Shown piece by piece: positions 5,632-7,130 of a DNA stretch of 64,000 nt (position 1 is the stretch's first letter; each line of letters starts with the position of its first letter). Source of the DNA: Candidatus Heimdallarchaeota archaeon. Its GTDB lineage: Archaea > Asgardarchaeota > Heimdallarchaeia > Heimdallarchaeales > Heimdallarchaeaceae. The stretch covers positions 1 through 64,000 of the forward strand of contig JAHLWR010000012.1 in assembly GCA_019057815.1 (NCBI GenBank). The letters run 5' to 3'. The translations under genes were made by a program, and so were the position numbers. The notes beneath the pieces were generated by a model. The model saw only the letters and a program-made list of their open reading frames with translations, searched no databases and was not told the DNA's origin.

Positions 5632-5669
5632 GGTCAACAGATAGTTTTATAAGGGAATCTTTTTGTCGA
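5629..5669 (+). repeat. Left terminal inverted repeat
   Basis: tcaggtcaacagatagttttataagggaatctttttgtcga is the exact reverse complement of 7126-7166. Confidence 0.95.
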
Positions 5670-5901
5670 GGAAAAAATACGACTAAATTGTAGAATCGTT
5701 CTAGAAGAAAAAACTATTGAGTAATTAGAGAGCGTAAAAATAACTCTTTTTGATGTTGTCGTATGTTAGAGACGACTACAAAGGTATCTAGTCGTAAGTT
5801 AGAAACGACTTAAGGTATTAGTGCTAACGAAAAGGGATTTAGAAGAGAAATAAGAACAGCACTTTAAATAGTGGGGAGATAAGTCGTATCACAGACACGA
5901 C
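5665..5901. repeat. Four 19-bp palindromes GTCG-N11-CGAC in the left subterminal region
   Basis: 5665-5683 gtcgaggaaaaaatacgac; 5758-5776 gtcgtatgttagagacgac; 5791-5809 gtcgtaagttagaaacgac; 5883-5901 gtcgtatcacagacacgac. Confidence 0.9.
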
Positions 5902-5921
5902 TTAGAAGTTAACAACAAATT

Positions 5922-6906
5922 TTACCACCATACCTTGAAACTTCTGTAAGGGTGATTACTTGTGAGATGTTTTCTGAGTTTATAGAGTTCCCTTGTAAGA
6001 TAAGTTGAAAGAGTGTGTGAACAATGAGTTTGGGAATCTTTAATTCTGTAATCAAACCGTCTAATTAATAACTTACGAAAGATTCTTTTCCCCTGGGCAT
6101 TCAATAATACAGCTTCTCCTTTTTTTTGAAAGTGTGACCCTTTGAGTAGAAAAAAACTGAGAGTATGAAAGATGGTTTGATAGACGACAACAGGTTTGAA
6201 GATATCTGCAATATCATATGCTAAACTTGCTTTATTAGCTTCGGGTTCATGTATGTAACCTATTCCAGGATGAAGACAAGTTCGATAAGCTTCTGTAATA
6301 AGTTTGCTATAGAGTATTATATTTCCATATGACATCAACGCACTAATAGGGTCTTTTGGTGGTCGTCTTGTGCGTTTTTTGAATTTCCACCAAAAGAAAA
6401 GTCTAGCTACAGCTTGATAAAAGTGAGTAGCCATGTGAGCTTCTTTGATTTTCAGCTGATCTACATTGGAAACATCTTTGAAATTAACTTCTTTAATCGC
6501 TTGTATTTGATCTGTAATATTATAACTGAAATTGCTATATTTTTGTAATAACCAGAGAGTATTGTGCTTTATCCCTTCTTCAATTTCTTGTGCCAAATTG
6601 AACCTCTTTTCATTACTATTGAAATACTCACTTTGTTTTAGGAGTATCTTCCCAGAATAACTAAAATAGGGCAAAGGAAGAGCTGAACCAATAAACTTCC
6701 CATAGGGTGGGTTCATGAAAGTAGATTATTATCCCTCTTCGCAATAAAGCATAGATTGTTTTCGTATCAATTTGGCCACTCCCTTCCCAGTGTATATCAC
6801 TTACCTCTGAAATTTTTTCTTCTATTACTTTGTGCTTTGTTTGGATGACTATTTTTTCTCCTCGTACTATTAATTTTTCATCATCATCAATTACTATACT
6901 TCTCAT
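5922..6906 (-). pseudogene. cas1: Cas1 endonuclease/integrase (type I-B-like), frameshifted by a 4-bp duplication; 326 aa if repaired
   Basis: ORF 6661..6906 gives the Cas1 N-terminus; ORF 5922..6716 gives KEAH (catalytic E), RPPKDPISALMSYGN, IGYIHEP (H), SLAYDIADIFKP (D) and a C-terminal YRSFKVWW. Removing one ACCC from GAACCCACCCTATGGG joins them as YFHEPYGKFIGS. Confidence 0.9.
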
Positions 6907-6927
6907 TTATCATATATGTTAGAATTT

Positions 6928-6940
6928 ACATATAAACTTG
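6928..6940 (-). promoter_or_regulatory. Putative TATA box of cas1 (leaderless)
   Basis: TTTATATG on the minus strand ~25 nt upstream of the ATG at 6906. Confidence 0.4.
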
Positions 6941-7017
6941 ATATAATTGCTTTCACTTTTTTTGCAAAAATACAAAACAAAAATAATTTGTTTCATCATT
7001 TACTGCGAATAATCTCC

Positions 7018-7130
7018 GTCGTCAATTTTTCTCGACTTACTTCTTCTTCCATTTCTAATCCTTTCCACTTCTGCATCAAATCTCCTTCTTTCACTTCATT
7101 AACAAAACTAAGTCGAAGTTTTCTTTCGAC
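7018..7130. repeat. Two 19-bp palindromes GTCG-N11-CGAC in the right subterminal region
   Basis: 7018-7036 gtcgtcaatttttctcgac; 7112-7130 gtcgaagttttctttcgac. Confidence 0.9.

Follow-up and report, generated by a model that had tools for sequence, protein, structure and literature searches.

In a 64,000-nt stretch of Heimdallarchaeal DNA (hereafter the window), palindromes of the form GTCG-N11-CGAC occupy both ends of a 1.5-kb element with a single gene, cas1. The element family is a mobile small transposon, and the palindromes are conserved, selected features of this family in one Heimdallarchaeia family. Judging from the sequences compared, the palindromes are very probably protein-binding sites. 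Our main reading, to which we assign a probability of about 0.6, is that Cas1 acts both as the binder of the palindromes and as the transposase.

Cas1 is thought to originate from casposon transposases. If our reading is correct, this transposon arose around a CRISPR-type Cas1, which would mean that the casposon-to-CRISPR step is reversible, with a new insertion mechanism. It would also provide a one-gene system for how Cas1 recognises DNA ends without Cas2, and offers an exact, mutable substrate: the arms, the 11-nt gap and the 33-nt tip. The sites may further help to find the binder of inverted motifs in type I-B leaders. Finally, Asgard genomes appear to be rearranged by the element, one composite holding 5.8 kb that resembles one genus within a locus of another.

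The element in the window and its palindromic sites

The complete element, its sites and the related features of the window are as follows.

5632..7163, no strand: complete Cas1-only mobile element, 1532 bp; tips set by six copies and empty sites
5632..5664, + strand: 33-nt outermost segment on the downstream side of cas1, comprising GG tip, TATA-like core and T-run
5665..5683, no strand: site D1, offset +34 from the tip
5758..5776, no strand: site D2, offset +127
5791..5809, no strand: site D3, offset +160, 33 bp after D2
5883..5901, no strand: site D4, offset +252, 20 nt beyond the cas1 stop; extended palindrome
5922..6906, − strand: cas1 (type I-B-like); Pfam PF01867 on both pieces, TIGR03641 as best family
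6929..6936, − strand: TATA-like box, read from sequence, ~30 nt upstream of the cas1 start
7018..7036, no strand: site U2, offset +128 from the upstream tip
7112..7130, no strand: site U1, offset +34 from the upstream tip
7131..7163, − strand: 33-nt outermost segment on the upstream side of cas1; sequence identical to that of 5632-5664
5275..5631, + strand: host zinc-finger gene (PF23477) cut off at the left tip; empty site in the sister species
7164..8692, + strand: host P-type ATPase without its 5' part; 1887 bp between the flanks missing by empty-site comparison
44586..44650, + strand: solo end of ~65 bp with the site at 44619; also in the sister species
45581..45671, + strand: solo end of ~91 bp, first site without its left arm
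26886..26905, − strand: solo tip relic of ~20 bp
57572..57587, + strand: possible solo tip relic of ~16 bp, weak

The initial annotation had listed 19-bp palindromes at 5665, 5758, 5791, 5883, 7018, 7112 and 44619. All seven are present at these positions, while shuffles gave an expectation of 0.03 for the window. The copies at 5758 and 5791, described as a tandem unit of ~33 bp, are 33 bp apart. The outermost copies are equidistant from the termini, as had been noted: both start 33 nt inside the tips at 5632 and 7163. The second sites lie at offsets of +127 in the downstream end and +128 in the upstream end. The TIR arms (5629-5689 and 7106-7166) are 89% complementary, with TIRs of ~50 bp.

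The motif is not common genome-wide. The 3.74-Mb genome contains 23 exact GTCG/CGAC sites at a spacing of 11 (~1.8 expected), and each of the other arm spacings from 0 to 24 yielded only 0-5 sites. All but two of the 23 are ends or relics of one element family; the remaining two, on contigs C27 and C28, resemble background. The proposed link between the motif and the element ends is thus borne out by 21 of 23 sites.

Comparison of the six complete copies showed no variation at 46 of 48 positions in the arms. For the middles this figure was 44 of 66 (Fisher p 1e-4), and for the remaining non-coding DNA 257 of 367 (p 4e-5); both p values are overstated because the copies are related. The earlier description of fixed arms, a fixed 11-nt gap and variable middles therefore holds, with the refinement that the middles are not random: they are AT-rich (77%), with A/T beside each arm. 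There is little pairing past the arms, most sites having 4-5 paired bases around the 11-nt gap and positions 6-9 pairing at the level of shuffles. Together, the fixed arms, fixed gap, AT-rich variable middle and scarce extra pairing fit a dimeric protein on duplex DNA. D4, with its extended palindrome, may in addition fold into a hairpin when transcribed with cas1.

According to alignment with intact copies, cas1 of the window is split by a frameshifting 4-bp duplication near 6705-6712. Seven other copies encode an intact Cas1 of 326 aa, and pairwise dN/dS values of 0.19-0.44 indicate purifying selection. The catalytic residues E154, H218, D230 and D233 are retained. The box at 6929..6936 is likely the cas1 promoter and, by position, is overlapped by no site. 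In the surrounding locus, an older tandem duplication (window 1-3635 and 5275-8692; 86-95% identical) comprises a block of the zinc-finger gene and the P-type ATPase, and the element interrupts the second of these two copies.

Conservation of the end arrays and ancestry of Cas1

The six-site layout is conserved in the other complete copies. Five such copies, of 1520-1530 bp and with unrelated flanks, each have two sites in the upstream end and four in the downstream one. Of 74 distinct ends, 40 have their first site at +34, and most others are cut short before or within that site. Neighbouring sites are separated by gaps of 31-33 or 91-100 nt, steps that would correspond to approximately three and nine helical turns.

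A second subfamily has a Cas1 that is 41% identical and a different TIR, and retains the motif with five sites per end, at offsets of about +35, +134, +226, +258 and +290. It is represented by an 8.6-kb element with cargo, whose right end adjoins flanks that differ between two samples. The length of the tip segment, 33-34 nt, is constant from one subfamily to the next, as are its G-rich tip, TATA-like core and T-run. Every end places a site 33-34 nt from the tip, and the sites persist where TIR and Cas1 have diverged. Besides cas1, the 8.6-kb element (L123-L125) carries a Schlafen AlbA_2 gene and four unannotated genes, and a partial end lies inside it, just upstream of cas1. In L123, an additional right end occurs 4.5 kb downstream, as if elements grow by end addition. 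A search for viral carriers of the second subfamily found none.

Solo ends are far commoner than whole copies and keep 16-540 bp from the tip. Some are common to sister species and hence older than the species split. Most ends are without a gene, and some bracket unrelated cargo. Relics of cas1 adjoining arrays also occur in genomes G001, G006 and G016. Several rearranged forms were observed in G000, the genome of the window. At C44:13901-13980, two solo ends are arranged head to tail, one tip being joined 57 bp inside the other end. A five-site end at C7:16875-17280 (L112) consists of a downstream-type end with an extra unit of ~98 bp at the tip; an ORF of 5230 aa lies 1.7 kb beyond it. Short internal cas1 fragments (70-180 bp) without ends are found at C40:92265-92446, C44:2681-2755 and C1:112787-112858.

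The tandem site pair is present in 5 of the 301 genomes of the phylum that were searched, these being incomplete genomes, and all five belong to one Heimdallarchaeal family. Two complete genomes of the same family contain 0 and 2 single sites. Motif counts in relatives ruled out a host-wide regulator motif.

Comparison of the element Cas1 with families and solved structures indicated that its best matches are type I-B CRISPR Cas1 proteins (PDB 4wj0, E 5e-35, versus E 4e-5 for the casposase 6opm). In a quick tree that contained no casposase rows, the element Cas1s grouped in a single, long-branched clade (support 100). Its sister group (support 90, a moderate placement) was the Cas1 encoded in cas3-cas4-cas1-cas2 operons of the host family. 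The element Cas1 thus seems to descend from a type I-B CRISPR Cas1, and so to be derived rather than ancestral. In every element copy, cas2, cas4 and an array are absent beside cas1, whereas they are present beside the sister Cas1s. Further, gene calling returned nothing but cas1 in the 1.5-kb copies, and no other gene is common to them and the 8.6-kb element. The predicted model is a plain Cas1 fold (pLDDT 92) with no added DNA-binding domain. Host CRISPR-Cas loci at G000 C18 and C20/C46 have two repeat types and Cas1s distant from that of the element.

Insertion signature and candidate binders

No target-site duplication was found around the six complete copies and 18 ends in which it was sought. 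Instead, in two empty-site comparisons the element stands in place of 1.9 kb and 0.8 kb of target DNA. At the window locus, the flanks are 1887 bp apart in the empty site of the sister species, and the paralogous copy at 1-3603 gives the same length. The insertion therefore removed the end of the zinc-finger gene and the start of the ATPase. The second comparison concerns L079:115-8982, in which two element copies bracket a 5.8-kb segment with 90-93% identity to the genome of the window, at C1:133361-139370. The outer flanks are 96-99% identical to the genome of another genus, where they are 782 bp apart. This composite is a candidate for inter-genus transfer on the basis of these identities, and may alternatively be an assembly chimera. 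Upstream of the element in L082, a host segment breaks off at the tip and does not continue on the opposite side. Targets are diverse and the junction bias is weak: a purine at −1 in 52 of 59, a purine at −2 and a pyrimidine at −3. Empty sites for solo ends were sought among the loci and five relatives; none was usable, the ends being shared with the sister species or lacking contiguous flanks.

Cas1 is the likely binder because it is the only gene common to all carriers and because the motif tracks the Cas1 clade, not the host. The initial annotation had likened the palindromes to the subterminal transposase sites of Mu/Tn7-type elements. This likeness is upheld by where the sites lie and how they are spaced, by their conservation between copies and between subfamilies, and by their confinement to element ends; we infer both the binding and the identity of the binder. 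In the proposed mechanism, Cas1 dimers would bind the dyad sites without Cas2, and the arrays would load several dimers and fold the end, like the transposase sites of Mu and Tn7. The fixed 33-nt tip segment would be presented like a prespacer arm, and the 3'-OH of the tip (ending CC) would attack the target, weakly preferring T-Y-R beyond the junction. Joining of the two ends would be loosely coupled, such that the target is replaced or rearranged rather than duplicated. Such coupling would explain the missing duplication, the target loss, the frequent solo ends and the composite elements. Recombination between two neighbouring copies after insertion could also be the reason for the missing duplications, and would likewise account for the whole insertion signature. 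More tentatively, and with somewhat less than even odds, a type I-B Cas1 may have left immunity to become a stand-alone transposase. It would have lost Cas2, turned a leader-type GTCG half-site into end arrays, kept a 33-nt prespacer-like reach, and adopted a separate joining of ends that replaces kilobases without duplication and carries host DNA between genera.

Some observations speak against Cas1 in this double role. Cas1 chemistry normally yields a target duplication, and none was found in six copies; moreover, the predicted Cas1 structure lacks an extra DNA-binding domain. The latter also favours the main rival, in which Cas1 is the transposase and the palindromes are bound in trans by a host protein that moulds the ends or regulates expression; candidates are a winged-helix regulator of the Csa3 type, a borrowed Cas2 and other dimeric factors. 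Consistent with such a binder, Cas2, and not Cas1, binds the leader repeats of type I-F (10.1101/2023.05.26.542337), proteins of the Csa3 type bind leaders in archaea (PMC9456107, PMC7465815), a TATA-like core lies upstream of the first site in each tip, and Cas2 is encoded elsewhere in G000 and G001. Nevertheless, we consider a host binder unlikely: the motif is at background in most relatives and without a footprint in ordinary host DNA; the end-carrying but incomplete genomes G014 and G006 yielded no Cas2; and the likely cas1 promoter is overlapped by no site. A related possibility, which we consider quite improbable, is that the ends serve as substrates for an unseen transposase or recombinase acting in trans, with cas1 as a passenger. 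The absence of target duplication and the kilobase-scale target loss are indeed unlike known Cas1 reactions, and most ends are geneless, some surrounding unrelated cargo. However, cas1 is the sole gene of the minimal copies, is under purifying selection, forms one clade and lies beside the arrays in both subfamilies, and the five other genes of the 8.6-kb element, several of them unannotated, include no recombinase or transposase family.

It is very unlikely that the palindromes act as RNA or single-stranded DNA hairpins, such as terminators, small RNAs or folded Cas1 substrates. The cas1-sense strand of 5632-5925 does fold better than shuffles (z −3.8), the arms of D4 are extended, with one two-sided change in L042, and Sulfolobus Cas1 binds stem-loops (PMC9456107). 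By contrast, most sites offer just the few paired bases described above, with pairing at the shuffle level beyond them, the arm sequence is fixed rather than covarying, and the opposite strand of 5632-5925 has a z of −0.2. An Rfam search for structured RNA yielded no match. Least credible of all is the reading of the sites as proto-CRISPR repeats, an ancestral form of repeat-spacer arrays; the initial annotation had suggested proto-CRISPR-repeat-like sequences if Cas1 binds them. In favour of this reading are the tandem unit of 32-33 bp, the adjacent Cas1 and two sites that agree with a host repeat at 18-19 of its 33 positions, more than in most shuffles. However, the element Cas1 is nested among I-B CRISPR Cas1s, and is thus derived; the DNA between sites is homologous across copies, where a CRISPR array has identical repeats with unique spacers; the middles differ between sites; and the host CRISPR repeats do not contain this palindrome. 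For casposons, the TIR-to-repeat hypothesis has been abandoned (PMC9939771). In the comparison with CRISPR repeats of the same genome, the best match was 19 of 33 positions, two of seven queries exceeded most shuffles and no common palindrome was detected. Host CRISPR spacers gave a single 14-nt match to the element, which was disregarded.

Relation to casposons, transposon ends and CRISPR leaders

The element works like a casposon with respect to Cas1 and like Mu/Tn7 with respect to end design, but is a member of neither group. Casposons (families 1-4 and the proposed family 5; PMC9939771, PMC6977970, PMC9755687) are likewise bounded by TIRs with Cas1 as sole integrase, and most of family 5 are also without PolB. 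The element has terminal inverted repeats and, to judge from the catalytic residues kept, Cas1 as its sole integrase. It differs in its size of 1.5 kb and in the absence of PolB, which families 1-4 possess and which the 8.6-kb element also lacks. In addition, tested casposases generate target duplications of 14-15 bp (PMC6977970), as opposed to none here. The targets are many and unrelated, Cas1 is closest to I-B CRISPR Cas1 and not to the casposase clade, and the ends contain subterminal palindrome arrays, whereas casposon integration depends on distal TIR bases.

Asgard Cas1 variants (aCas1 and aCas1-TnpB) are proposed to be transposases of repeat-flanked elements (PMC10691335, PMC8730458). 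As described by papers citing Makarova 2020, these groups resemble the present family in their Asgard hosts and in having Cas1 as the proposed transposase. By the same descriptions, the minimal copies differ from aCas1-TnpB elements in having no tnpB beside cas1 and a canonical full-length match to Cas1 families. Our literature searches found no paper on these end arrays, and the main text of PMC8813620, on Ca. Heimdallarchaeum genomes, does not mention Cas1. The Cas1-only transposon family is apparently undescribed, as judged against descriptions of the aCas1 groups in citing papers, and may overlap with one of those groups.

As in Mu and Tn7, the element has subterminal site arrays at fixed offsets. 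The ends of Mu and IS21 contain multiple transposase sites, unequal between the ends, with the first at a fixed distance. Tn7 ends similarly have several spaced sites per end, in unequal numbers, the first fixed with respect to the tip (10.1101/2025.07.27.667033). In contrast to Mu, Tn7 and IS21, the sites here are dyads rather than directional repeats, and there is no DDE transposase, AAA+ partner or 5-bp duplication.

CRISPR leader motifs (type I-F; T3/T22 of Thermococcales type I-B, PMC13748974) also comprise inverted half-sites with a TCGA-like core beside the adaptation integrase, the arms of T3/T22 being CGAA and TTCG (PMC13748974). In 22 type I-B leaders, GTCG/CGAC was the most enriched non-homopolymer 4-mer (31 seen versus 10 expected). 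Spacings of 33 bp and ~95 bp also occur in these leaders, as in the element arrays, and two GTCGAC sequences stand 33 bp apart in the leader next to the nearest sister Cas1. By contrast with the element sites, the half-sites of leaders are separated by 33-100 bp or by a gap 2 nt shorter, and they lie on the target side of the reaction; no exact site with the 11-nt gap was seen in the leaders examined. As support for a link to Cas1, the enrichment is suggestive only. It is weakened by the binding of I-F leader repeats by Cas2 and by other leaders that carry different repeats at equal spacing. Inverted repeats of other sequence at the same 33-bp spacing in host leaders suggest that the leader motif may be a regulator site. 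In archaeal leaders (L218, L231, L221 and G000 C18), an inverted repeat of system-specific sequence has half-sites ~33 bp apart around a TATA box. Bacterial I-B leaders contain pairs with a TCGA core, 60-100 bp apart.
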